Assembly (NCBI GenBank): GCA_963823665.1
Contig: CAWGMQ010000005.1
Span: 512,001 to 576,000, forward strand
DNA from: an uncultured Planctomycetota bacterium
GTDB taxonomy: Bacteria; Planctomycetota; Planctomycetia; Isosphaerales; Isosphaeraceae
DNA length: 64,000 bases
Direction: 5' to 3'
Of this stretch, positions 15,117-58,569 are shown piece after piece. A program made the position numbers and the translations under genes. The notes under the pieces are model-generated. The model was not told where the DNA came from. It was given only the letters and a program-made list of their open reading frames with translations, and searched no databases. Position 1 is the stretch's first letter. Each line of letters starts with the position of its first letter.

Positions 15117-15489
15117 ATGTGGGAAGTAGCGACGACGGCCGAGTTCGACGACTGGTTCGCCGATCTGGGCGAAGACGCGCAGGTCGAACTCATCGCCAAG
15201 GTAGGGTTTGCTGAGGCTGTTGGGTCCGCAACTCGGGCGACCGCATGCGGACACGCTCAACGATTCAAAGCACTCCAACATGAAAGAACTTCGGGCGGAC
15301 ACGAGGGATCAGGTGTTGCGCGTCGCTTTCGCATTCGATCCCGATCGGTCGGCAATCTTGCTTCTGGGCGGCAACAAGTCCGGCGTCAGCCAGAAGCGCT
15401 TCTACAAGCAACTGATCGCCAGGGCGGACGCCCTATACGACGAGCACCTAAAGAAGATCGCCGCGCGAAAGAAAGGCAAGGGAAAGTAG
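15117..15489 (+). CDS. Type II TA toxin, RelE/ParE superfamily (Gp49/HigB-like); frameshift near 15205
   Basis: MWEVATTAEFDDWF...GPQLGRPHADTL.DSKHSNMKELR...RVAFAFDPDRSAILLLGGNK. Confidence 0.85.
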
Positions 15490-15490
15490 C

Positions 15491-15829
15491 ATGGCTAAAT
15501 CATTCGACGAACTGGTCAAGCGCACGACTACGAAAAAGACGCGTGACCGTGCGGCTGCTCGCACGGGGGAGCTCCTGGACGAGTTGCTGCTCAGTGAAAT
15601 CCGTGAGCAGGCGGGCAAGAGCCAGCGGCAAGTCGCCGACGCGCTGGGCATCAAGCAACCGAGCCTGTCGAAGCTGGAGAAGCAATCCGACATGCAAATT
15701 TCGACCCTGCGCCGCATCGTGAACGCACTGGGCGGGGAGTTGGAAGTCTCCGCGAGGTTCCCCGTGGGAACCGTGAAGATCGAGCCGTTCAATCCCAGAT
15801 CTCCCGCAGCCGCTCGGCGTGCTCGTTGA
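15491..15829 (+). CDS. XRE-family HTH antitoxin (HigA-like)
   Basis: SQRQVADALGIKQPSLSKLEKQSDMQISTL; 1 nt after toxin stop. Confidence 0.88.
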   Translation: MAKSFDELVKRTTTKKTRDRAAARTGELLDELLLSEIREQAGKSQRQVADALGIKQPSLSKLEKQSDMQISTLRRIVNALGGELEVSARFPVGTVKIEPFNPRSPAAARRAR

Positions 15830-16679
15830 AGCGGAACTTCTCCCGTTCCTTGCGGGGCTGCCGAACATCGCATACTCCCAGTCGAAGTACACTTTGAGGA
15901 ATTTGTTTAGATACCAGTTGAAGCCGACGTCGACCATCTGGGCTTCATTCGAGCAAATTGAGGCTGCCGAAGGATTCCTGGAATGAGAACTCGTATGAGA
16001 ATGGCCTGGTGAGGTGCCCGTAAAAGTAGACGCGGGTCCGAGGGCTCGTGATGCCGCTGCTGGCATAATCCTGATTCGGGTTTGCATAGATCCGCGCGTC
16101 GAGCTGCTGCATCGCACGGATGCCGAAGTTGAACTCGTCGTCGTCCGTACCCCACCGGAGCCCGTCGTTGGCGTAGTCGTAGTAGCCGCCCGCCAGCGAT
16201 AACTTGCCGAGTTGCCGATTTCCAATGACCTGGGCGCGCCCGGTCGTCGTCGGGTCGCCGCCGCCGGATGCCGACCCACCCCCGAGTGACGACGATATCG
16301 AGTACGATGTTCCGCCCCCGCCGACGAAGCCGCCGCCCTCGCCCACGTCGGGCCGCGGATCGATGGATGTAGGAGGGAACGGCTGACTCTGGTTCCGATT
16401 CGCAGACTTGAGCTCCTCGACCTCGTGTGAGAGCTCTGCGTTCTGCTTCGTCACCTCGTCGAGACGTTGCTCCATCCTCTGGAGGCGATCGAGCAGCTCT
16501 TGCTGGACATTCGAAGGAGAAACGGCTGTCGGTGGCAGGGCGTCAACCGGCGGAATGGGCGGCGATCCCCCCTGGCCCATGGCGCCACCGCACCAGCCAG
16601 CGAGCGTCCAGACCAGGGTCATCATCGAAAGCCAGCGAGACCTGCCGGAATCGATGATCCGAACCATTGGGATTCCCAC
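15830..16679 (-). pseudogene. OprO/OprP-like anion-selective porin with large internal deletion
   Basis: Signal peptide, coiled coil and first beta strands end at SFGSLNLL, then jump out of frame to C-terminal DVGFNWYLNKFLKVYFDWEYA. Confidence 0.7.
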
Positions 16680-17023
16680 CTGTCCGACTTATCGCGGAGA
16701 GCCGCACCGATCGGGCCAGGTTCTGGATCGCAGGAGGACAAAGATCTGAATTATATCCCGGGTGGGAAACGGGCTGGGATGTGCGATCCTATTCGCCTGC
16801 GTGGATGTTACCATTTGCTCTGAAACGAGCGATTTGGCGCGGGACCGCGGCCGCGAATTGACACATCTTCGTTATCGTCGACCTTGCGCACTGCCTTCAG
16901 CAAAAAATGCCAGTCGTGACGATTTTTCCGGATGCCAGGGTCTCGCGGAACGTGCCTTCGGGGCGTTTGCGATTCCTCCCCTGCACTGAGCTGCCGGGCG
17001 ACCCCATTCGAGAACGTCGACCT

Positions 17024-18199
17024 TCAAGTCCCATCCTTGGACGCGATGAACACGTCGCGGCGGGGGAACCGCTCGAACTGCGAAGCCGGCCTACCGAAGT
17101 TGGTGGCGAGCACGTCGGGCGGATTGCCGGCGATCCATTCCGACAGATCGATCTCCTCGTAGACCCCGGAGTTGAACCCGATGAGGACGCGGCACTTCCC
17201 GTCGCCAACGTTTTCGATCGAGTGCCCGTACCCTTGCGGGGAGAAACCGACGTCACCCTTCTCGAACGTCTCCGTCCGGTAGCGCCCGCCCGACCCGAAC
17301 AGTGTCATGCTGACCTTACCCTCGAGGATGTACTGCCACTCGTCGGCGCTGGGGTGCCAGTGCAACTCCCTCAGCGCACCGGGCTCGAGTTCGAGGACCG
17401 CGCCTGCCATGGTCTTGGAGATGGGAAACTTGGTGGAATCGACCAGCCACAGCCGGCCTCCCTTGTTGTTGACGCGCGGGTCGTTGGCGAGGAGCTGCCA
17501 CTTGTGCGTCGATGGCGGCTGTTTCGGGCCCGCGAGCGGGTCAGCCGCCCGCTTGGGCGGCACCGTGCCCCGCGCGAAATACACCTCCTTCTTCGGGAAC
17601 CCATCGAAGGCCGATTCGGGGAGGCCGAAGTTCTTCGCCAACAGCGCGCTGGGAGCGTGGCCCATCCAGTCGGTGATGCTGAAAGTGCCGAACTCGGAGA
17701 AGTAGCCGTTGTCGAAGATCAGGACGAAGTGGCACGGCTCGTGGCCGAGGCACTCCAGCATGTGGCCGTGGCCGCGCGGGAAATACCACACGTCCCCCGG
17801 CTCGAAGTCATTCGTCTCCGTGTACCCCCCCGGGCCGAGGACGGTCGTCCGGACTCGTCCCTTGTCCACGAACGCCCACTCGGCTGCGGTGGCATGCCAG
17901 TGGAGCTCGCGCATGGCGCCCGGGGCCAGCGTCATCGAAACCCCGGCGATCCCCTTCGAGATCGGAAGCTGCTTGACCGTGGCCTCTCTGGCTTCGCTGC
18001 CGTCGCTGATCTTCCCTTTCGACTTCTCCAGCTCGAACTTGAATGTCGGCAGCTCTTCACCCGCGAGTAGCGGGTCCGGGACGTTGTTCATGAAGCTCGG
18101 ATCGCCGGCCTCGGCAGCCCTCGGGCTCGCCAGCGCCGCGGCAGCCGCGGCGCTGAGCCCCGCACCCGCCAGGAATTCACGCCTCTGCAACTTGGACAT
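17024..18199 (-). CDS. oxdC: Oxalate decarboxylase-family bicupin with Tat signal
   Basis: QRREFL Tat motif; RELHWH..AEW and RELHWHPSADEW Mn-binding motifs; lid loop SEFGT keeps the Glu of B. subtilis SENST; AGGAGA RBS. Confidence 0.85.
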   Translation of the reverse strand: MSKLQRREFLAGAGLSAAAAAALASPRAAEAGDPSFMNNVPDPLLAGEELPTFKFELEKSKGKISDGSEAREATVKQLPISKGIAGVSMTLAPGAMRELHWHATAAEWAFVDKGRVRTTVLGPGGYTETNDFEPGDVWYFPRGHGHMLECLGHEPCHFVLIFDNGYFSEFGTFSITDWMGHAPSALLAKNFGLPESAFDGFPKKEVYFARGTVPPKRAADPLAGPKQPPSTHKWQLLANDPRVNNKGGRLWLVDSTKFPISKTMAGAVLELEPGALRELHWHPSADEWQYILEGKVSMTLFGSGGRYRTETFEKGDVGFSPQGYGHSIENVGDGKCRVLIGFNSGVYEEIDLSEWIAGNPPDVLATNFGRPASQFERFPRRDVFIASKDGT

Positions 18200-18605
18200 G
18201 GGAAGTCTCCTTGGTTGATCCGTGTGTGGGATGGGCACGGAGAGACTGCGATCAAAAGCGCCCGCTAATCGAGGATGCGTCACCCGCATTCGGCCGCCTG
18301 GTCTGTCTCCAGACGCACGATGACTGGGGCCTCCGCTAGTTACCTGGACAAGGAGTATCACAAATAACGAGGGAGCGTCCTTGCAACACTTGTACCGCGG
18401 AGGTCTTGCGGTGGCAAGGAGGGGAGTTACGCCGACCAGTTTCTCAGAGTTCGACGAAGCACGCGCACTTGGCACGAGAAATGCCCTCTGCGCTCCCATC
18501 ACGATCCGCATCGTGATTGTCGAGCGGCCACTTGATCAGTCCGCACACCGACCATACGCTGATGAAGCACGTCGTCGTCGAGATCACAGCGTCGGGGGCG
18601 GAATC

Positions 18606-19466
18606 ATGATCAAGATCTGCCGCAGGACGGGCGTTGCGAGCGTCGAAGTGGGGCGAGTGACCGGATCGCTCTGCGTGCCCTCGTCCGACGAGCTCTCGGT
18701 GGAGGAACCGCTGGAGATCCGCCTGGCGGCTCAGCCCGCGGACGCCGCGCCGACCTCGGTCGCCGTGACGATGCGGACGCCAGGCGACGACGTGGACCTG
18801 GCGGCTGGCTTTCTCTTCACCGAGGGAATCATCGCCGGGGCCGCAGATATCGAGAGCATCAGGCGAGCCGGCGTGAACGCCGTGGAGGCGAAACTTCGGC
18901 CTGGCGTCGTCCTGGACGCGGCCAGACTCGACCGTCACTCGTTCGTCTCTTCGAGCTGTGGCGCGTGCGGCAAGCGGTCGATTGCCGCGGTTCGCGTGGC
19001 GAGCCGCCACCCGATCACCCCGGGATTGCCGCGCTTGTCGCCCGAGGTGATTCACGGCCTGCCGCGGGCGCTCCGAATTAGCCAGTCAGCGTTTGCACGG
19101 ACGGGCGGCATCCACGCCTCGGGCCTCTTCGATGCTGAGGGCCGTCTGCTCGTGCTCCGGGAGGACGTCGGCCGCCACAACGCCCTGGACAAGCTGATCG
19201 GCTCCGAGCTGCTCGCCGGGCGCATCCCGCTGACGGGCGGGATAGTCCTGGTCAGCGGCCGGGTGAGCTTCGAGCTGGTACAGAAGGCGGCGATCGCCGG
19301 CGTCCCGGTGCTCGGGGCCGTCGGGGCCCCGTCAAGTCTGGCGGTCGACCTGGCCCGCGAGTGCGGGATGACGCTGCTCGGCTTCGTCCGCGATGCGCGC
19401 TTCAACGTCTACTCCGATTCCGGCCGGATCGATCCGGCCTACAACCTGACCCATTCCGCGTCGTGA
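18606..19466 (+). CDS. fdhD: Formate dehydrogenase accessory sulfurtransferase
   Basis: VEEPL, TMRTPG, SSCGACG, TGGIH, REDVGRHNALDKLIG. Confidence 0.95.
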   Translation: MIKICRRTGVASVEVGRVTGSLCVPSSDELSVEEPLEIRLAAQPADAAPTSVAVTMRTPGDDVDLAAGFLFTEGIIAGAADIESIRRAGVNAVEAKLRPGVVLDAARLDRHSFVSSSCGACGKRSIAAVRVASRHPITPGLPRLSPEVIHGLPRALRISQSAFARTGGIHASGLFDAEGRLLVLREDVGRHNALDKLIGSELLAGRIPLTGGIVLVSGRVSFELVQKAAIAGVPVLGAVGAPSSLAVDLARECGMTLLGFVRDARFNVYSDSGRIDPAYNLTHSAS

Positions 19467-19473
19467 GGTAATC

Positions 19474-22400
19474 ATGTTCAAACTTCCTTTCGTGGCCCGC
19501 TCGCAACCGTCGCGACCCCAGAACCAGCCCCTCAGCCCCCGGACTGCGGAGAAGTCCTCGCGGCTGCGCGGCGCGACCGTCACGGACGGGCTCTGTCCCT
19601 ACTGTGCCGTTGGCTGCAGCCAGCTCCTCTACACCAAGGCCGGCCAGCTCATTGACATCGAAGGCGACCCGCGTAGCCCGATCAACGAAGGCACTCTCTG
19701 CCCAAAGGGCTCGAACGCGTTGCTCCTGGCCCTCAACCCGCATCGCATGAAATCCGTGCTCTATCGGGCTCCCTACTCCGACAAATGGGAGACCAAGACC
19801 CTCGACTGGGCGCTCGACCAGATCGCCCAGCGGGTCAAGGCGGCGAGAGATGCCGACTTCACGGTGCGCGATGAGGCAGGTCGCACGCTCAATTCGGTCA
19901 GGAACATGGGGTCGCTCGGCGGTGCAACGTTGAACGTCGAAGACAACTACCTGATCAAGAAGCTGTTCTGCGGCGGGCTGGGAGTGGTCTCGGTCGAGAA
20001 CCAGGCCCGAACTTGACACTCCGCCTCGGTGCCCGGTCTGGGCGCCTCGCTCGGCCGCGGTGCGGCCACCAATTATCAGCAGGATCTGCCGAACAGCGAT
20101 TGCATCCTGTTCATGGGCTCGAACATGGCAGAGGCCCACCCCGTCGGGTTCCGCTGGCCCATGAAGGCCAAGGAACACGGCGCCACGTTGATCCACGTCG
20201 ACCCGCACTTCTCGCGGACGTCGGCGCTCTGCGACCTGTACGTCCCGATCCGGGCCGGCTCCGACATCGCGTTCTTGGGCGGCATGATCAACTACGTCCT
20301 GACCCACGAGCGCTGGTTCAAGGAATACGTCCTCCATTACACCAACGCGGCGACGCTGATCCAGGAGGGCTTCCAGGACACCGAGGACCTGGGCGGTCTG
20401 TTCAGCGGTCTCGACCCGGAAACCGGCGTCTATGACCCGGTGGGCGGACACTGGGGCTACGAGGGCTCGCTTGGTGACCGCGGCAGGCGGGACGGCCGCG
20501 ACGAGGAGCCCGGTGCCGACCGGTCCGACTCCCCGGACATCTCGCCGGAGAACCGCAAGGGAATCCACGGCTACGCCATCGACGGCGGCGCCCAGCCGCA
20601 CGACGCATCGCGGTCGGAGCCGACATCCGAAGTCAACGGCCAGCCGCCACGCGACCCAACCCTGCAGCATCCCCGTTGCGTCTTCCAGATCCTGAAGCGC
20701 CATTTCTCCCGGTACACGCCGGAGATGGTCTCCCAGGTGTGCGGTTGCTCGCCGGAGCAGTTCACGCGCGTTGCCGAGCTTCTCTGCGCCAACTCGGGCC
20801 GCGAGCGGACGAGCGTCCTGGTCTACGCCCTGGGGTGGACGCAGCATGCCGCGGTGCGCAGATGATCCGAGCCGGGGGGATCTTGCAGCTCCTGCTCGGC
20901 AACATCGGCCGTCCGGGTGGCGGTATCCTGGCCATGCGAGGCCATTCCAGCATCCAGGGCTCGACGGACATCGGGACGTTGTATGACGTCCTGCCCGGCT
21001 ATCTGCCCCAGCCCGCGGCCAGCGGGGCCCATGACACGCTCGATTCCTACGTCGCGCGAAGCGGTATGGCCGCCGGCTACTGGTCCCACTTCCGCGATTA
21101 CATCGTCAGCCTGCTCAAGGCGTGGTACGGCGACGCCGCGCGACCCGAGAATGATTTCCGGTACAACTGGCTGCCCCGCATCGAGCGCGATCACTCGCAA
21201 TTGCCGACCTTCAACCGCATGGCCCAGGGCGAGCTGAAGGGCTACTTCCTCTTCGGCCAGAACCCCGGCGGCGGCGGACTGAATGCGGGACTTCACCGCG
21301 CCGGGCTGCGTAACCTGGACTGGCTCGTCGTGGCCGACTGGTTCGAGACCGAGAGCGCCACGTTCTGGAAGAACGACCCAGCCGCACCGCCGCCGTCCGA
21401 GATCAAGACCGAGGTCTTCGTCCTCCCGGCCGCGGCCAATCCGGAGACCGACGGCACGCTGACCAACACCCAGCGGCTGCTCCAGTGGCACACCAAGGCG
21501 ATCGACCCGCCCGGCGACTGCCGCTCCGATTCCTGGTTCGTATACAACCTCGGCAAGCGGCTCAAGCAGCTCTACGCCGGCTCGACCGATCCCAAGGATC
21601 AGCCCCTGCTGAACCTCACCTGGGACTACGACTACGAGGAACAACCGCGGCTCCCCGACGGCTCGATCAGTCGCATCGCGGGTGATGCCGACGCCGAAAA
21701 AATCCTGATGGAGATGAACGGCTACAAGCTCGACGAAATCGACCCACGCACCGGCCGGCCGCGCCTGCTGAAAGGCTTCTCGGAACTTCAGGGCGACGGC
21801 ACCACCGCATGCGGCATCTGGATCTACAGCGGCGTCTTCCCCGAGCCGGGTCGCAACCGGGCGCGGCAGCGCAAGCGATCCGACAACCCGCTCGAGCCGG
21901 ACTGGGGATTCGCCTGGCCCGATAACCGCCGCGTGCTCTTCAACCGCGCGTCGGCCGATCCCGAGGGCCGGCCCTGGTCCCAGCGGAAGAAGCTCGTTTG
22001 GTGGGATGCCGAGAAGAGTCTCTGGGTGGGCCTCGACCGGCCGGATTTCGAGCCGAGCAAGCCGCCCGACTATCGCCCGTCGGCCGGCGCGACCGGCATG
22101 GCGGCCATCGCCGGCGACAATCCGTTCATCATGAAGCCCGACGGCGTCGCCTGGCTCTTCGCCCCAACCGGCGTCAAGGACGGCCCCCTGCCGACGCACT
22201 ACGAGCCCATCGAGTCGCCGGTCAGCAACCTGCTCTATCCCAATCACATGTGTACGCCGGGAGTGCGCCTCTTCCCGGGACCTCGCAATCGTCTGGCACA
22301 TACGCCCGAGACCGAGTTCCCCGTCGTGGCCACCACCTACCGGCTCACCGAGCACTACCTGAGCGGGCCGATGAGCCGGTTCAATTCCTGGCTCAACGAA

Positions 22401-22823
22401 TTGCAGCCCGAGATGTTCATCGAGATGAGCCCGGAGCTGGCCGCCGAGCGCGGGATCATCCACGGCGGCTGGGTGACGGTCACCACGGCGCGGGGCCGCA
22501 TCGACGTGCGCACGATGGTGACCAGGAGGATGCGACCGCTCGTCGTGAGCGGACGAGTGGTCCATCAGGTCGGCCTCCCGTTCCATTGGGGGTTCGCCGG
22601 ACAGGTCGTCGGAGGCAATGCCAACGACCTGACCTCCCTGGTCTGCGAGCAGAACACGAGCATGCACGAGGGAAAGTCTTTTGCCTGCCAGGTCGAGCCT
22701 GGAAGGCGCAACGGGCACACTTTGAAACCGACCGTGTCATTCGTGACCTGGCCCAACCGCAAACCCATACCCGATACGCCCGCCTCGGCCCAGCCGGAAG
22801 GGATATTCACCCATGGGCATTAG
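19474..22823 (+). CDS. fdnG: Selenocysteine formate dehydrogenase alpha subunit (FdnG/FdoG type); Sec at 20014-20016; frameshift near 20852
   Basis: CPYCAVGC...LCPKG; NQART-UGA-HS matches FdnG NQARxUH; GSNMAEAHP; RGHSSIQGSTD; TTYRLTEH. Confidence 0.92.
20028..20046 (+). promoter_or_regulatory. Bacterial SECIS hairpin
   Basis: GGTGCCC-GGTCT-GGGCGCC stem-loop beginning 11 nt after the in-frame TGA; GGUCU loop as in E. coli fdhF SECIS. Confidence 0.88.
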
Positions 22824-23851
22824 AGGAGCTCGAGCTGGCGGATCTGCCACAGACCGGCGACCCGCCCATCGGGCCGCTCGCTGCGATCATCAATCGCCTC
22901 ACCTGGCCGTTCCGCTACGGTCATGTTGAGCCCCAGCCGTCCACCGGCTTCTACACGGATACCACCGTCTGCATCGGCTGCAAGGCGTGCGAGGTCGCCT
23001 GCAAACAATGGAATCAGCTCGCCGCCGACGGGCTCGAGTGGACGGGCAACAGCTACGACAACACGGCTGAACTCTCGGCGACATCCTGGCGGCATGTCAA
23101 ATTCATCGAGCAGTTCGCCGCGAATCGACGGCCCTCAGGCCAACATGCAGCCGATCCGGCGGCAACGAGCCACGAACTGACACTTGACCATTTGCTGAAC
23201 GGGGGTGGGCCGAGTCGGTGTGGGGAGTTTCCCGCGGCAACGAGCCACGAACTGACCCTTGACCAGTTGCTGAATGGCGGCGGGGCCGGTCGGTGGTTGA
23301 TGATGAGCGACGTCTGCAAGCACTGCGTCGCCGCCCCTTGCCAGCACGCGTGCCCCACGGGCGCCATCATCTATAACGAGTTCGCGAACGTCTACATCCA
23401 GCGCGACATCTGCAATGGCTGCTCGTATTGCATCGCGGCCTGCCCGTTCGGGGTCATCACGCGCAGCGATTTCGATGGCCATTCGCACAAATGCACGCTC
23501 TGCTACGACCGCCAGAAGGACGGCCTCGTCCCGGCCTGTGCCAAGGCCTGCCCGACCGCGTCGATTCAGTTCGGCCCGATCGACGAGCTCCGCGAGCGGG
23601 CACGGAACCGGGTCCAGGAGCTTCACGCTCAGGGCGTCACGGGAGCATACCTTTACGGCGAACAGCCCACCGAGACCTATAGCGATCTCCATTCGTTCTA
23701 CCTGCTCGTCGATCGTCCGGCCGTCTACGGACTCCCGGATGCGCCCTTCAACCCGTGGCTCCACATGCTCGCAGATTACGGCAGGACCCTCGCCAGCGCG
23801 CTGGCCACGGTCGCCGTGATTCTCGCATTGCTATTGCTCCAGGAGGCATGA
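22813..23851 (+). CDS. fdnH: Formate dehydrogenase beta (4x[4Fe-4S]) subunit with C-terminal TM helix; start needs a 1-nt correction
   Basis: CIGCKACEVAC, CKHC....C..ACP, CNGCSYCIAACP, CTLC...PACAKACP. Confidence 0.85.
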
Positions 23852-23852
23852 C

Positions 23853-24774
23853 GTGGGGGAGAACGACAGGGCGCAGGCGATCGAGCCCGGCTATCTGTCC
23901 CAGGACGTGACCAAGGTCCCGGGCTGGCACGGGCTCGTCGCCTGGGACTTGCTCTTCAATAACCTGACGACCGGGCTTTTCCTGTTCGCCGCGGTCACCG
24001 AGCTGGCCGCGCCTGCGCTATTCGGCCCCGTGGCCAGAGTGGCGTATCCAGTCGCGCTGGTCTTCCTGCTCACCGACCTGGTGATGCTGGTGGCCGACCT
24101 GGGCGATCCACTCCGCTTTCATCACATGCTCCGGGTGTTCAAGCCCACCTCGCCCATGTCACTGGGCACATGGAGCCTCACCATCTATTCACTGCCGCTG
24201 ACCTTGATCGTGGCGGTCGAAGCGGCGCAAGTGCTCCACCTGCTGCCGAGCGAGTCGACGGCGCTGGAATGGGTTCGCAAGGCGGCGGTGGTCTTCGGTC
24301 TCCTGCCGGCCTTCGGCTCCGTGGCGTACAAGGGAGTGCTCTTCAGCACGTGCTCGCAGCCCGGCTGGAAGGATGCCCGCTGGCTGGGCGGTTTCATGGC
24401 TAATTCCGCACTCATGTTGGGTAGCGCCCAGTTGCTCGCCATCTCGGTGCTGACGGGAGACGCGCGGGCCGCCGCCGCTCTGAGCACCATCGTCGCGGTG
24501 CTCGCCGTACTCAGCCTGATCCCGACCGGTTTCGTCTTCCTGGAAATTCGCGAGACCCTCGCGCGAATTTACAGCGACCAGCAGATTTACCGTGCCCTTT
24601 CGCTCACCTTGGTCGCAGGTACGCTGGTGCCGGTGATCCTCCTGCTCGCCGGAGATGGCGCTCCTTGCGCTGGGCGCGGTGTTGCTCATTGTACTCGGTG
24701 CCTTCGCTGTTCGTTCGCTGTTTCTCAAGATACCGCACGCTTCTCACGAGAGTCGATCGAGGGACAAGGCCTGA
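23853..24774 (+). CDS. nrfD: NrfD/PsrC-family membrane anchor; frameshift near 24658
   Basis: LVADLGDPLRF...SPMSLGTW; true last helix LLALGAVLLIVLGAFAVR in shifted frame, stop at 24772-24774. Confidence 0.82.
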
Positions 24775-24881
24775 TTCCGGATGCGGAACCTCGAAATGGG
24801 GAACCTGCATTCTCTTCGTGGCCGCCACAACTAGAAGAGTTCGATGATGCAAAGCGGATGGATCGCTGGGGAGGGCACGTC

Positions 24882-26207
24882 ATGACCGATGCAGTGCTAT
24901 GGCATCGCATCCAGTTTGCCTTTACGATTACTTATCATTATCTGTTCCCCCAATTGACGATGGGGCTGGCCCTGCTCATCGTGGTATTCAAGTCGCTCGC
25001 CCTGTGGCTTCGCAACGAGTCGTACAACGAGGTTGCCCGCTTCTGGGCGCGGATCTTCGCCGTCAACTTCGCCATGGGCGTGGTGACCGGAATCCCGATG
25101 GAATTCCAGTTCGGCACCAACTGGGCGGCGTTCTCCCGTTTCTCTGGCGCAGTAGTCGGCCAGGCCCTGGCGATCGAGGGTCTCTTCGCGTTCTTCCTCG
25201 AGTCCGCGTTCCTGGGGCTGTTCCTCTTCGGCGAAAAGCGGCTCGGCTCGAGGGGGCATCTCGCGACAGCCGTCGCCTTGACCCTGGGCTCCTGGATGTC
25301 GGGCTACTTCATCATCGTCGCCAACGCCTTCATGCAGCACCCGGTCGGCTACCGGCTGGGAGAGGACGGAGTGCTCCATCTCGAGAGTTTCCGGGCCTAC
25401 ATCCTCAACCCCTGGGCGCTCTGGCAGTATGCCCACAACATGCTGGCCTCGGTCGTCACGGCGTCGTTCGTCGTGGCCGCCGTGGGAGCCTACTGGTCGC
25501 TCTTGGGCCAGCACACGCGCCACGCCGGGATCTGCCTGCGCGTGGGAGTGATCGCCGGGCTCGTCTCGAGCCAGCTCGTCGCCTTCCCGGCCGGTGACGG
25601 CGCCGGCAAGATGGTGGCAAAGCATCAGCCGGTCACGCTCGCGGCAATGGAGGGGCTGTTCGAAGGCGGACCGTACGCCGAGCTCGCCATCATCGGCCAG
25701 CCCGACGTCGCCGCCCGCAAGCTGGAGAACCCGATCGTCGTTCCCTGGATCCTCAGTTTCCTCTGCTACGGGTCGTTCGGAAGCACCGTCCACGGGTTGA
25801 ACGACTTCCCGCAGGACCAGTGGCCGCAGAACATCGAGTTGCTTTACTACAGTTATCACATCATGGCAGGGCTCGGGACGCTCTTCATCCTGACGATGGG
25901 AGTCGCAACGTTGCTCCTGTGGCGTGGGCGGTTGGCGACGACGCGCCCGATGCTCTGGGTGCTGATGCTGGCGTTTCCGTTCCCCTACATCGCGACGACC
26001 GCCGGCTGGTGGACCGCCGAGCTGGGCCGCCAGCCATGGGTGATCTACGGCCTCATGCGCACGGCCGACGCCCACTCGAAACTGGTCAATCCAGGCGACG
26101 TTGTCTTCACGGTGCTGGGCTTCGCCGGCCTTTACTTGCTCCTTGGCATGCTCTTCGTCATCCAGGTCCTCAAAGAGATCAACCGCGGTCCGGCCGCGTC
26201 GCATTAG
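24882..26207 (+). CDS. cydA: Cytochrome bd quinol oxidase subunit I (short Q-loop)
   Basis: RIQFAFT..YHYLF, EFQFGTNW, ANAFMQHP, ELGRQPW; GGAGGG RBS. Confidence 0.95.
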   Translation: MTDAVLWHRIQFAFTITYHYLFPQLTMGLALLIVVFKSLALWLRNESYNEVARFWARIFAVNFAMGVVTGIPMEFQFGTNWAAFSRFSGAVVGQALAIEGLFAFFLESAFLGLFLFGEKRLGSRGHLATAVALTLGSWMSGYFIIVANAFMQHPVGYRLGEDGVLHLESFRAYILNPWALWQYAHNMLASVVTASFVVAAVGAYWSLLGQHTRHAGICLRVGVIAGLVSSQLVAFPAGDGAGKMVAKHQPVTLAAMEGLFEGGPYAELAIIGQPDVAARKLENPIVVPWILSFLCYGSFGSTVHGLNDFPQDQWPQNIELLYYSYHIMAGLGTLFILTMGVATLLLWRGRLATTRPMLWVLMLAFPFPYIATTAGWWTAELGRQPWVIYGLMRTADAHSKLVNPGDVVFTVLGFAGLYLLLGMLFVIQVLKEINRGPAASH

Positions 26208-26217
26208 GACACCGACC

Positions 26218-27306
26218 ATGGAAGCAGCCTGGTTCGTGATCATCTCGGGTATGCTCGCGGCTTATGCGGTGCTCGACGGCTTCGACTTCGGCGTCGGCGC
26301 CATCCACCGAATCGTCGCCCGCACCGATCTTGAGCGGCGGACCGTGCTGGCGGCGATCGGCCCGATCTGGGACGGCAACGAGGTCTGGCTGATCGCGGCC
26401 GGCGGCGCGTTGTTCGTGGCCTTCCCGAATGTCTACGCAACCGCGTTCAGCGGCTTCTACATGGCCCTTTTCGTCGTACTCTGGCTGCTGATCCTGCGTG
26501 GCATGGCGATCGAGCTCCGCTCGCACCAGGACCATCCCCTCTGGCGGGAATTTTGGGATTCGGTCTTCATGTTCGCGTCGGGGCTGCTTGCCGTGGTGTT
26601 CGGCACGACCCTCGGCAACCTGATTCGCGGAGTTCCGCTCGGAAAAGACGGGCTGCGGGGTATGCCGCTATTTACGAACTTCCTGATCGGCGGCCAGCCG
26701 GGAATCCTCGACTGGTACACCGCGCTCGTTGGCCTGTTCACGCTCGTGGCTCTGGCAGTCCACGGCGCCTTCTACCTTGCATGGAGAACCACCGGGCCCG
26801 TGCGGGACCGCAGCCTGGCGTTCGCGCGCCAGGCGTGGAAGATCGCGCTCGTCCTGTGGGTGGCCGCCACGGCCGCGACCCTATGGGTGCGGCCCGAAGT
26901 CTTCTCGGGCCTCGCCTCACGTCCCTGGGCGTTCCCATTCGTCGGCATCGCAATCGCCGGGGCCTGGGGTGCTTTCCGGTTTCCGCGACTCGGCCAAGAC
27001 CTCGCGGCATTCCTCTCGTCGTCCGCGTTCCTGCTCGGCATGCTGGCCGCGACACTCGCGGGCCAATACCCGTACTGGCTGCGGTCGACCCTCGACCCGT
27101 CCTACAGTCTCACCGCCTTGAACTCGGCCTCCGACCACTACGGGCTGCGCGTAGCCCTGACCTGGTGGCCCGTCGGGATCGCGCTGGTCGCCGTCTATTT
27201 CACGTTCCTGTTTCGCTGGATACGGGGTAAGGTCAACGTGGAAGCTGAGCCGTCGCACGGGTCAGCCGTCGCCGGAGCGGTACATCCGACCGAAGAACGG
27301 ATCTGA
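26218..27306 (+). CDS. cydB: Cytochrome bd quinol oxidase subunit II
   Basis: YAVLDGFDFGVG, IGPIWDGNEVWL. Confidence 0.95.
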   Translation: MEAAWFVIISGMLAAYAVLDGFDFGVGAIHRIVARTDLERRTVLAAIGPIWDGNEVWLIAAGGALFVAFPNVYATAFSGFYMALFVVLWLLILRGMAIELRSHQDHPLWREFWDSVFMFASGLLAVVFGTTLGNLIRGVPLGKDGLRGMPLFTNFLIGGQPGILDWYTALVGLFTLVALAVHGAFYLAWRTTGPVRDRSLAFARQAWKIALVLWVAATAATLWVRPEVFSGLASRPWAFPFVGIAIAGAWGAFRFPRLGQDLAAFLSSSAFLLGMLAATLAGQYPYWLRSTLDPSYSLTALNSASDHYGLRVALTWWPVGIALVAVYFTFLFRWIRGKVNVEAEPSHGSAVAGAVHPTEERI

Positions 27307-27341: not shown

Positions 27342-28095
27342 GTGTTTGACGCGTTTGAGTTGCGACCTCGATCCGGACCAGATCCGAAACATCGACTGGA
27401 TGCCAGCAAGATCGTCGAAACGGCGAAGAACCTCGCCGATGACATTAACACTCGGCTGCCGGGGAGCAGCCTGGCCGGGCTCGCTGAGGAGCTGACCAGG
27501 GTCGCGGTCGCGACTCGTACGCGAGGACGGCACGCGCGCCGGCCAATCCTGGCCATCAGGGCGGTCTCCGCCCTGGCGATCGGCCTGGCCCTCGTGGGGC
27601 TCTGGTATCTCGCCTGGCATCTCCACGCGAGGTGGGACTTCGGCAGCACGATCGGCGAGCTCTTCGGGGCGATCACCGCCGGGTTCAACCTCCTGGTCCT
27701 CCTCGCCGGCGCCCTGTGGTTCTGCGTGACCCTCGAGGCCCGGTTCAAGCGCAAGGAGGCTCTGGGGTACATCCAGGAGCTGCGCGAGTTCGCTCACGTC
27801 ATCGACGTGACCCAGCTCTACTACACCCCGAACCTGTACCAATCTCGCCAGGGGACCGCGCCCGGCAAGACGGCCATCGACGAGACCTACCTGCTCTACT
27901 GCACGCAGATGCTCGGCGTGATCAGCAACCTCGCGCCCCTCTACTCGCGTGGGGCGACCGGCGACTCGATCCTGCGCGGCATCGGAAGTCCAAATGCTCG
28001 CGATGGCCATTGCCACCAAGCATCTGGCCAAGGCCGAGGCCGCACGCAGGATGAGCGAGGAACTCCCAGGGTCGGGCCCGGAACCGGGCGGATGA
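27342..28095 (+). CDS. Hypothetical two-TM membrane protein; frameshift near 27978
   Basis: Two hydrophobic helices; ELREFAHVID; shifted frame continues SEVQMLAMAIATKHL to TGA at 28093. Confidence 0.6.
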
Positions 28096-56613: not shown

Positions 56614-58569
56614 ATGAACTACGTCCTAGGCACCGCCGGCCACATCGATCACGGCAAGACAGCCTTGGTCCGCGCCTTGACCGGCGTCGATACCGACCGC
56701 CTCCCCGCCGAAAAGCAGCGCGGCATCACGATCGACCTGGGCTTCGCATCACTCGAGCTGGGCGAATGCCACGTCGCGTTGGTCGACGTGCCCGGCCACG
56801 AGCGATTCATCCGCAACATGCTCGCCGGCGCCTCCGGTCTCGACCTCGCCATGCTCGTCGTCGCGGCGGACGACTCGGTCATGCCGCAAACGCGCGAACA
56901 CATGCAAATACTCACCTTGCTCGGTCTCTCCGCCGGAGTCGTCGCACTCACCAAGTGCGACCTGGTCGATCCGTCCTGGCTGGATCTCGTCGAAGAAGAC
57001 ATTCGCTCGCTCGTCCGCGGCACGTTTCTCGAAGGCGCACCGATCGTGCGGACCTCGGCGGTCACCGGAGCTGGGCTCGATGAGCTGAAAACCGCGCTCG
57101 AATCCGCTTGCCGCGCGGCTGCGCCCGCAACCGATCCCGGTCTGTTCCGCATGGCGATCGACCGCTCGTTCACGGTGCCGGGCCATGGCACGGTCGTCAC
57201 CGGCACCGTCGCCTCCGGTAGCGTCGCCGTCGGTGACGAGCTCGAGTTGCAGCCCCGCGGCCAAACGGTTCGCGTGCGTGGCCTGCACCGGCACGACCGC
57301 CCGGTCCAACACATCGCCCGTGGCTCGCGCGCGGCCATCAATCTGGTCGGCGTCCACCACGCCGAGATCACCCGCGGCCACGAGCTCGCCTCTCCGGGCT
57401 ACCTGGAAGCAACTCGTGTGCTGACGGTTGATCTGATCGCTTCTGACGACGATGCCGGCCGCCCGCTCAAGCACCGCGATCGATACAAGCTGCATCTTGG
57501 GACCGCGGAGGTTTCCGCCGTGCTCTCGCTGCTCGAACGAGCCGAGCCCGCGCCGGGCACCACCCGCCTCGCTCAGCTTTTGCTGGCAGAGCCCGTCGTG
57601 GCGGTGCATGGTCAGCCTTTCGTGTTGCGCGTCGAGAGTCCGCCCGCCACCATTGGCGGCGGCCGCGTCATCGGTCCGTCGTTGCGAAGGCTCAGGCGCA
57701 CCGATCAGCGAGCAATCGCCCGCCTCGAGCACCTGCGCGCGCAGGAACCAACCGCTCGGCTCCGCGGCGCCCTCGCGTCACTCGGCACTCGCACATGGAC
57801 CGAGCGGCGCATGTGCGCGGTCGCGGGCTTGAGCGCCGCTCAAGTGGAATCATCCCTTGCCTCGCTGGTCGCCTCGGGCTCCCTGGTCGAGCTTCCCGTC
57901 GGCCCACGGCGCACGATCCGCGTACTCGACGAGTCGGTCCGTGCTCTGGAAGATCGAATCCTGCGCGCCTTGGCCAGGCTTCACGAGGCACATCCACGCC
58001 AATCAACCATCTCGCGCACCCGGCTCGAGGCCGCGTTGCCTGACCTCGACAACAAGACGCTCGTGGCCGCCTTGATCGACCGCTTGAAAACCCTGGGCAA
58101 ACTGATCGGCGACGCGCGCACCGTCGCCCTTCCCGGATATGAGCCCAAGCTCAGCCAGGGCGAGCGCAAGCTCAAGCTCGAGCTCGCCCAGGCGATCTCC
58201 GCCGGTGGCTTCAGTCCCCCCGAGGTCGCCGATCTTACGGCCACAGCCGGCGCCCGCGCCCCCGTCGTGCCCGAGTTGCTCACCTTGCTCCGCGAAGAAC
58301 AGCGCGCCGTCTTGATCTCGCCAACCCTCTACCTCGACGCCGAGGTCGAGCGTGATCTCCGCCGCCGCGTCGCCGAGCGGCTCGATGCGGGCGGCACGCT
58401 CACCATGTCCGAGCTGCGCGAGCTGCTGGGCACCACCCGGAAATACGCGGTCCCCATCGGCGAATACCTCGACCGCATCGGACTCACCCTCCGCGACGGA
58501 GACCTGCGCCGCCTGAACGCCGGCGCGAGCCAGACCGCCCCTCCGGATGAAGCGAACGGCCCAGGTTGA
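56614..58569 (+). CDS. selB: Selenocysteine-specific elongation factor
   Basis: GTAGHIDHGKT, RGITIDLGF, DVPGHERF; C-terminal winged helix LGTTRKYAVPIGEYLD. Confidence 0.96.
   Translation: MNYVLGTAGHIDHGKTALVRALTGVDTDRLPAEKQRGITIDLGFASLELGECHVALVDVPGHERFIRNMLAGASGLDLAMLVVAADDSVMPQTREHMQILTLLGLSAGVVALTKCDLVDPSWLDLVEEDIRSLVRGTFLEGAPIVRTSAVTGAGLDELKTALESACRAAAPATDPGLFRMAIDRSFTVPGHGTVVTGTVASGSVAVGDELELQPRGQTVRVRGLHRHDRPVQHIARGSRAAINLVGVHHAEITRGHELASPGYLEATRVLTVDLIASDDDAGRPLKHRDRYKLHLGTAEVSAVLSLLERAEPAPGTTRLAQLLLAEPVVAVHGQPFVLRVESPPATIGGGRVIGPSLRRLRRTDQRAIARLEHLRAQEPTARLRGALASLGTRTWTERRMCAVAGLSAAQVESSLASLVASGSLVELPVGPRRTIRVLDESVRALEDRILRALARLHEAHPRQSTISRTRLEAALPDLDNKTLVAALIDRLKTLGKLIGDARTVALPGYEPKLSQGERKLKLELAQAISAGGFSPPEVADLTATAGARAPVVPELLTLLREEQRAVLISPTLYLDAEVERDLRRRVAERLDAGGTLTMSELRELLGTTRKYAVPIGEYLDRIGLTLRDGDLRRLNAGASQTAPPDEANGPG

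Follow-up and report, generated by a model that had tools for sequence, protein, structure and literature searches.

The stretch of DNA considered here, referred to as the window, comprises 64,000 nucleotides (positions 512,001 to 576,000 of contig CAWGMQ010000005.1, assembly GCA_963823665.1) from an uncultured bacterium of the Isosphaeraceae (Planctomycetota), and carries a gene of the oxalate decarboxylase family (oxdC) next to genes for a selenocysteine (Sec) formate dehydrogenase (FDH) and a cytochrome bd oxidase. An earlier note on this DNA had described an oxdC with a twin-arginine (Tat) signal, divergent by 406 nt from the co-directional run fdhD-fdnG(Sec)-fdnH-nrfD-cydA-cydB and followed by a remnant of an OprO/P-like porin; profile searches, start codons and alignment to an intact porin confirm this arrangement, with the whole run on the plus strand, at the coordinates given below:

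17024..18199, minus strand: oxdC, a 391-aa Mn bicupin of the oxalate decarboxylase family (TIGR03404; PDB matches)
18200..18605, no strand: divergent gap between oxdC and fdhD, with a module junction at about 18422-18455 (DNA matches to kin)
18606..19466, plus strand: fdhD, FDH sulfurtransferase (PF02634; TIGR00129 above cut-off)
19474..22823, plus strand: fdnG, Sec FDH alpha subunit, NF041513-like, without a Tat peptide
20014..20050, plus strand: Sec codon TGA (20014-16) and a conserved downstream hairpin at the position of the Sec insertion sequence (SECIS)
22813..23851, plus strand: fdnH, 4Fe-4S beta subunit with a C-terminal membrane helix
23853..24774, plus strand: nrfD, eight-helix PsrC-type anchor (PF03916)
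24882..26207, plus strand: cydA, cytochrome bd subunit I, 441 aa, intact (PF01654)
26218..27306, plus strand: cydB, cytochrome bd subunit II, intact (TIGR00203 above cut-off; PF02322)
15853..16679, minus strand: pseudogene of the OprO/P porin family, located downstream of oxdC (aligned by tblastn with a complete porin)
27342..28050, plus strand: unnamed membrane protein travelling with the module, end approximate (no Pfam or NCBIfam match)
56614..58569, plus strand: selB, outside the cluster, needed for reading the UGA of the FDH (TIGR00475 above cut-off)

The oxdC product (start codon ATG at 18199, stop at 17024, minus strand) scores 346.6 bits on TIGR03404, against a curated cut-off of 254.2, and begins with the Tat peptide MSKLQRREFL. 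Its PDB matches are Synechocystis Sll1358/MncA (3e-93) and Bacillus subtilis OxdC (5e-83), with which it shares, when aligned to 2vqa and 5vg3, both Mn sites (R-x-x-H-W-H…E…H) and the lid glutamate; the Mn-site residues have established roles, as has the lid glutamate in decarboxylation. It differs from these two proteins in its lid, which reads SEFGT instead of SENST, i.e., with the decarboxylase glutamate and threonine retained, in the Ile at the position of B. subtilis E333, and in its linkage to FDH and bd genes. Among 80 OxdC relatives, the closest named of which are from Planctomycetota, 79 carry the SEFGT lid and 75 a Tat-like peptide (simple pattern match); MncA and the Agrobacterium OxdC are likewise Tat-exported. 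From its sequence the protein is likely a periplasmic enzyme converting oxalate to formate. Two further oxdC-like genes are present elsewhere in the source genome.

The FDH alpha gene contains an in-frame TGA within ENQART*H, common to all 17 locus rows compared, and selA, selB, selD and tRNA-Sec are found above cut-off in the source genome; the features of a Sec FDH-NrfD type are thus present, namely the catalytic in-frame UGA with the Sec machinery, and the beta subunit and eight-helix NrfD downstream. Folding of the hairpin at the SECIS position does not go beyond that of shuffled sequences (z -0.91). The best model for the alpha subunit is NF041513 and not FdnG TIGR01553; the three pieces into which the gene is presently split score separately 179.8, 359.2 and 836.5 bits on NF041513, for which the whole-protein cut-off is 1400. 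On the contig of the window, 37 kb separate selB from the Sec FDH, and selA is located some 60 kb away in the other direction; a stretch of about 20 residues is duplicated inside the Fe-S domain of fdnH (window 23140-23290). The source genome also has a second cydA and, at a distance, a YdeP-type gene.

From a set with one genome per species, which gave 498 OxdC loci, the best 80 were used to count the neighbours of oxdC, FDH being scored within 10 kb. An FDH is present in 16 of the 80, against 0.19 expected from the FDH density in 61 genomes, and its type varies: four loci have a Tat-less FdnG-type enzyme, one FdnGHI, seven FdhF/YdeP and four an FdhF of 985 aa. Two molybdoenzymes, in L138 and L057, were dropped from this count, both being low-scoring and that of L138 being a nitrate reductase with genes for nitrite reductase next to it. 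Eight of the 80 loci carry fdhD, five cydA, and four an FDH together with cydAB; on a quick OxdC tree the FDH-linked genes stand at 10-14 separate places (a by-eye count, with many open forks). Operon-like arrangements include ydeP-DUF7009-cydA-cydB-oxdC-dps in a complete Singulisphaera genome (L133; gaps below 50 nt from ydeP to oxdC), oxdC-ccp-cydA-cydB-fdhD-fdnG-fdnH-nrfD in L151 (gaps up to 124 nt) and ydeP-OFA carrier-oxdC in Chthoniobacter (L113), where the only PDB matches of the carrier are SfMCT and OxlT. Formate carriers occur beside or between oxdC and FDH, FNT in the plasmid loci L202 and L203 and OFA in L113 and L136, and anion porins lie near oxdC in 9/80 loci; DUF1275, a carrier candidate, is found among the 80 only in L101 and L102, and additionally in L214. 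Homologs of the unnamed membrane protein follow cydB or oxdC in L065, L123, L133 and L166. DUF7009 recurs beside FDH, fdhD or cydA (L133:7129-7506, L067, L093, L116 and L199) and is a candidate accessory protein of the FDH.

A second sample consisted of 20 of 83 OxdC-bearing plasmid records, taken at one or two per genus with flanks of 7-8 kb and chosen blind to neighbours. FDH is present in 4/20 (other phyla and other OxdC clades, 39-51% identity), FNT in three, full cydAB in two, dps in one and a peroxidase in none. Here the genes ydeP, oxdC, cydB, cydA and fdhD are contiguous, with nothing between them, in Bradyrhizobium; the order is oxdC-FNT-ydeP in Phyllobacterium, fdhF and fdhD followed by a porin from a different family and then oxdC in Granulicella, and ydeP-cydAB…oxdC in Bosea. 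Related sensor kinases and response regulators lie near oxdC in four alphaproteobacterial plasmids (L197, L202, L203, L212), the kinase being a candidate regulator of the module; a Komagataeibacter plasmid (L212:4640-13925) bears a divergent pair of oxdC genes together with a carbohydrate porin, and has tatA and tatC of its own. The pairing of oxdC with FDH thus recurs, in shuffled gene orders, in four bacterial phyla and far above chance, and forms a real but loose module with interchangeable FDH types; linkage in other genomes, on which the proposal in the earlier note was to be judged, does exist, in gene orders and phyla other than that of the window. The reading adopted here, with moderate confidence and on the basis of gene content and sequence, is that of a loose CoA-free module that would conduct oxalate carbon to formate and its electrons through quinone to O2, for defence against acid and oxalate and with a small energy yield, not for growth.

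Several observations weigh against such a coupling. No FDH is nearby in 64/80 oxdC loci (40 of the 53 loci of at least 19 kb), and oxdC was found in none of 24 FDH-centred metagenome loci, most of which are short or distant. The window's own divergent oxdC/fdhD layout was found in no close relative examined: in the same-genus genome G001, oxdC is 248 kb from the fdh unit, in G033 about 1 Mb, and in G021 and G030 the two are on separate contigs. Among genomes that combine oxdC with a close FDH subtype, the two are linked in 3/14 (2/13 without the window genome), and in 0/7 kin with oxdC and the Tat-less FdnG type (the contigs of G017 being short). An FNT formate channel was not found in the source genome (16.46 Mb, 12 contigs, 92% complete), where an OFA carrier query gave only a 42-residue match, and the porin, by which the anion would enter, is broken in the window. 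The three broken genes of the FDH operon and the behaviour of dps, both considered below, belong to the same side of the account.

The rival explanation that survives best, although we regard it as rather unlikely, is a general acid/oxidative stress islet, in which oxdC, FDH, cytochrome bd, Dps and peroxidase would belong to one stress regulon and move as a group, formate from OxdC not being the main substrate of the FDH. In planctomycetes, dps is near oxdC in 7/80 loci against 0.09 expected, an enrichment about equal to that of FDH, and is near FDH in 2/8 genomes, compared with 3/14 for oxdC (Fisher p 1.0); cytochrome c peroxidase (9/80) and aldo-keto reductase (8/80) also occur around oxdC, and YdeP has been tied to acid resistance. 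Because dps is enriched about as much, distance counts alone cannot separate metabolic coupling from a pool of stress genes. Co-occurrence at genome level, i.e., oxdC with close FDH subtypes in 14/23 against 3/38 (p 1e-5), was not used as support, since close Dps behaves similarly (8/9) and subtypes follow kinship. It is rather the kinds of neighbours that favour coupling: the formate carriers directly beside or between oxdC and FDH, the anion porins, and the replacement of one FDH type by another, four types substituting for each other beside oxdC; in the plasmid sample, moreover, FDH outnumbers dps. In B. subtilis, acid induces both oxdC and FDHs, oxdC responding to external acid and not to benzoate, and the FDHs to both (PMC2788229); a shared acid signal is, however, compatible with flux, so that the two readings overlap.

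It is improbable that the adjacency in the window reflects no more than a fortuitous joining of an oxdC-porin unit to an fdh-cydAB operon, in a locus that may be decaying, although the layout is indeed a junction of two modules kept apart in the closest kin. Within the 406 nt between the ATG of oxdC (18199) and that of fdhD (18606), DNA matches to L035 and L087 cover 17022-18421, whereas those to L066 and L069 begin at 18455 and 18468, respectively: the oxdC unit (to 18421) and the fdh unit (from 18455) each bring their own upstream DNA. A promoter and terminator scan of 18200..18605 gave nothing above shuffles, with no sigma-70 match. The fdh and cydAB genes are linked in 5/9 kin loci with the Tat-less FDH type and form a conserved unit, of which oxdC is not part; what is present in the window, the "island" of the earlier note, is one local arrangement and not a conserved genomic island, and the cluster shows no distinct composition (GC 0.63-0.67, against 0.58-0.69 across the window). 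Nevertheless, these partners are also brought together in many other lineages.

As for decay, the porin remnant aligns with two parts (residues 42-230 and 500-536) of a complete OprO/P porin of 560 aa (tblastn; PF07396 is found on L123), about 810 bp having been lost at 15949/15950, a stretch present in L035, L087 and L049, together with the last 24 or so codons; this deletion is real. A Gp49-like (DUF891) and HTH gene pair at 15208-15829, likely a toxin-antitoxin module, lies directly against the truncated side of the remnant. Compared with intact kin, fdnG is one base short at about 20852-55, fdnH has one extra base at about 22824-25 and nrfD is two bases short at about 24666-69, so that three genes of the operon are broken in the source assembly; a 784-aa NrfD-CydA fusion frame is a false product of the 2-base gap, intact kin carrying two genes. 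These three indels are likely assembly errors, because the single rpoB of the source genome is also split over two frames (rpoC is in one), in assemblies of kin these genes are interrupted at different positions, and no premature in-frame stop besides the Sec codon was seen. None of 23 sequencing runs contained more than 0.16 of the words, and the four examined are mixtures of contigs of relatives, in which the frame-keeping bases are present and no piece spans the junction; the frames, habitat and expression of the window strain are therefore not settled by them.

Very improbable, finally, is a bicupin acting mainly as an oxalate oxidase, with peroxidase and bd oxidase clearing its H2O2 and formate a minor product: a di-haem cytochrome c peroxidase lies less than 400 nt from oxdC in 6/80 loci, but it is absent from the window locus, and the SEFGT lid keeps the decarboxylase glutamate and threonine. 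This peroxidase gene, just after oxdC in L116, L117, L130, L132, L151 and L156, may encode an enzyme clearing the H2O2 of an OxdC side reaction.

The proposed coupling of OxdC to FDH depends on the side of the membrane on which the FDH works. The alpha subunit is devoid of a Tat peptide in the window and in the 11 close relatives whose N-terminus could be read; such a peptide is present on that of L081, L082 and L161 (the Tat-bearing paralog clade is 52% identical). A model of the intact NrfD of L069 has eight helices and the PsrC fold (best Foldseek match 2vpw_C; pLDDT 78.8); the NrfD profile gave no match to PDB sequences. In 6/6 Tat-less NrfD proteins Lys+Arg number 9-13 on the N-terminal side versus 4-6 on the other, and in the single Tat-linked one this is reversed, 5 vs 15; the counts come from a simple hydropathy script, which called seven helices in two rows, with that one Tat control. 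The charge of the FdnH C-tail gives a mixed and weak signal. Given this charge bias and the positive-inside rule, the FDH-NrfD complex is likely inverted and cytoplasm-facing, with the N-terminal side of NrfD in the cytoplasm. The actinobacterial alpha/beta/NrfD type (NF041513) is similar in its FdnG-like alpha, one-helix beta and eight-helix NrfD; published work on Rhodococcus equi models that trimer as exported, in spite of a negative SignalP result and a cytoplasmic PSORTb assignment for alpha (PMC13332983), whereas the window complex has the charge bias of an inverted, cytoplasm-facing enzyme and is co-directional with cydAB. The Tat-bearing FDH-NrfD paralogs of L082 (10698-17991) and L081, with reversed NrfD charge bias, offer a natural pair for the study of membrane-protein inversion.

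In the proposed route, oxalate would enter across the outer membrane via an anion porin, and periplasmic OxdC would split it into formate and CO2, using one periplasmic proton. With OxdC outside and FDH inside, as predicted, this formate must cross the membrane, presumably in the form of formic acid when the pH is low or by way of an FNT or OFA carrier in those cases in which one is encoded. FdhD would sulfurate the Mo cofactor of the FDH, and the FDH-NrfD complex would oxidise formate, passing electrons to quinone and then, via cytochrome bd, to O2; the net reaction would be C2O4(2-) + 2H+ + 1/2 O2 -> 2 CO2 + H2O, with two protons consumed per oxalate. With a cytoplasm-facing FDH, a redox loop of the FdnGHI type would not operate and charge would be moved by bd only, about two per oxalate on the known stoichiometry of this oxidase; the quinone-linked type would give no NADH and no cell carbon. 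For these reasons defence and maintenance energy would fit better than growth, and the CoA-independent oxalate respiration of the earlier note is retained as a recurrent pairing and amended as to purpose, detoxification with a small energy yield fitting better. Its separation from the Oxc/Frc/OxlT pathway (types II/III, which need CoA) is upheld, neither oxc nor frc being found above cut-off in the 92%-complete source genome (best 169/739 and 117/504 bits); its pathway is probably correct in outline.

E. coli FdnGHI or FdoGHI with cytochrome bd constitutes a formate oxidase, and the path from Sec FDH through quinone to bd is the same here; the window FDH differs in being without a Tat peptide, in the NrfD/PsrC fold replacing the cytochrome b556 FdnI, and in the absence of a periplasmic redox loop. 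Fungi are reported to have oxalate decarboxylase and FDH co-located and co-expressed (PMC13409138), formate from OxdC being then oxidised by an NAD-FDH; the window cluster is bacterial, its FDH kinds are of the Mo/W type (one of them quinone-linked), and it adds cytochrome bd and extends across the membrane. The oxalate-to-formate step is shared with bacterial degradation type V, in which, in the portion of the account at hand, OxdC acts alone in a single step and no linked FDH, carrier or oxidase is given (PMC10192776), whereas the window cluster links FDH and bd; the oxalate route in PMC5116747 is Oxc/Frc. In Pseudomonas putida, FdhF/YdeP proteins function as FDHs (PMC10308882). The fungal OxdC+FDH route and type V are already known; no description of a bacterial oxdC-FDH-bd cluster was found in the open literature, and subscription journals or supplements may contain one.

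To our knowledge, the purpose of bacterial OxdC is not clear to date, and the recurring FDH, carrier and bd partners give a direct test of its role in cultured strains that carry the cluster, such as Singulisphaera sp. PoT, Bradyrhizobium sp. 184, Phyllobacterium sp. 628 and Granulicella tundricola. More tentatively, and with some doubt, soil Planctomycetota, Verrucomicrobiota, Acidobacteriota and Alphaproteobacteria may share an energy-conserving, CoA-free oxalate respiration invisible to oxc/frc surveys, comprising a porin, OxdC in the periplasm, a carrier for formate, FDHs that can replace one another (one of them a membrane-inverted NrfD complex) and cytochrome bd. If the flux is real, unnamed porins and carriers would gain a substrate, the orientation of Tat-less FDH-NrfD complexes would need revision, and oxalate turnover in acid soils would include taxa missed by oxc/frc markers.

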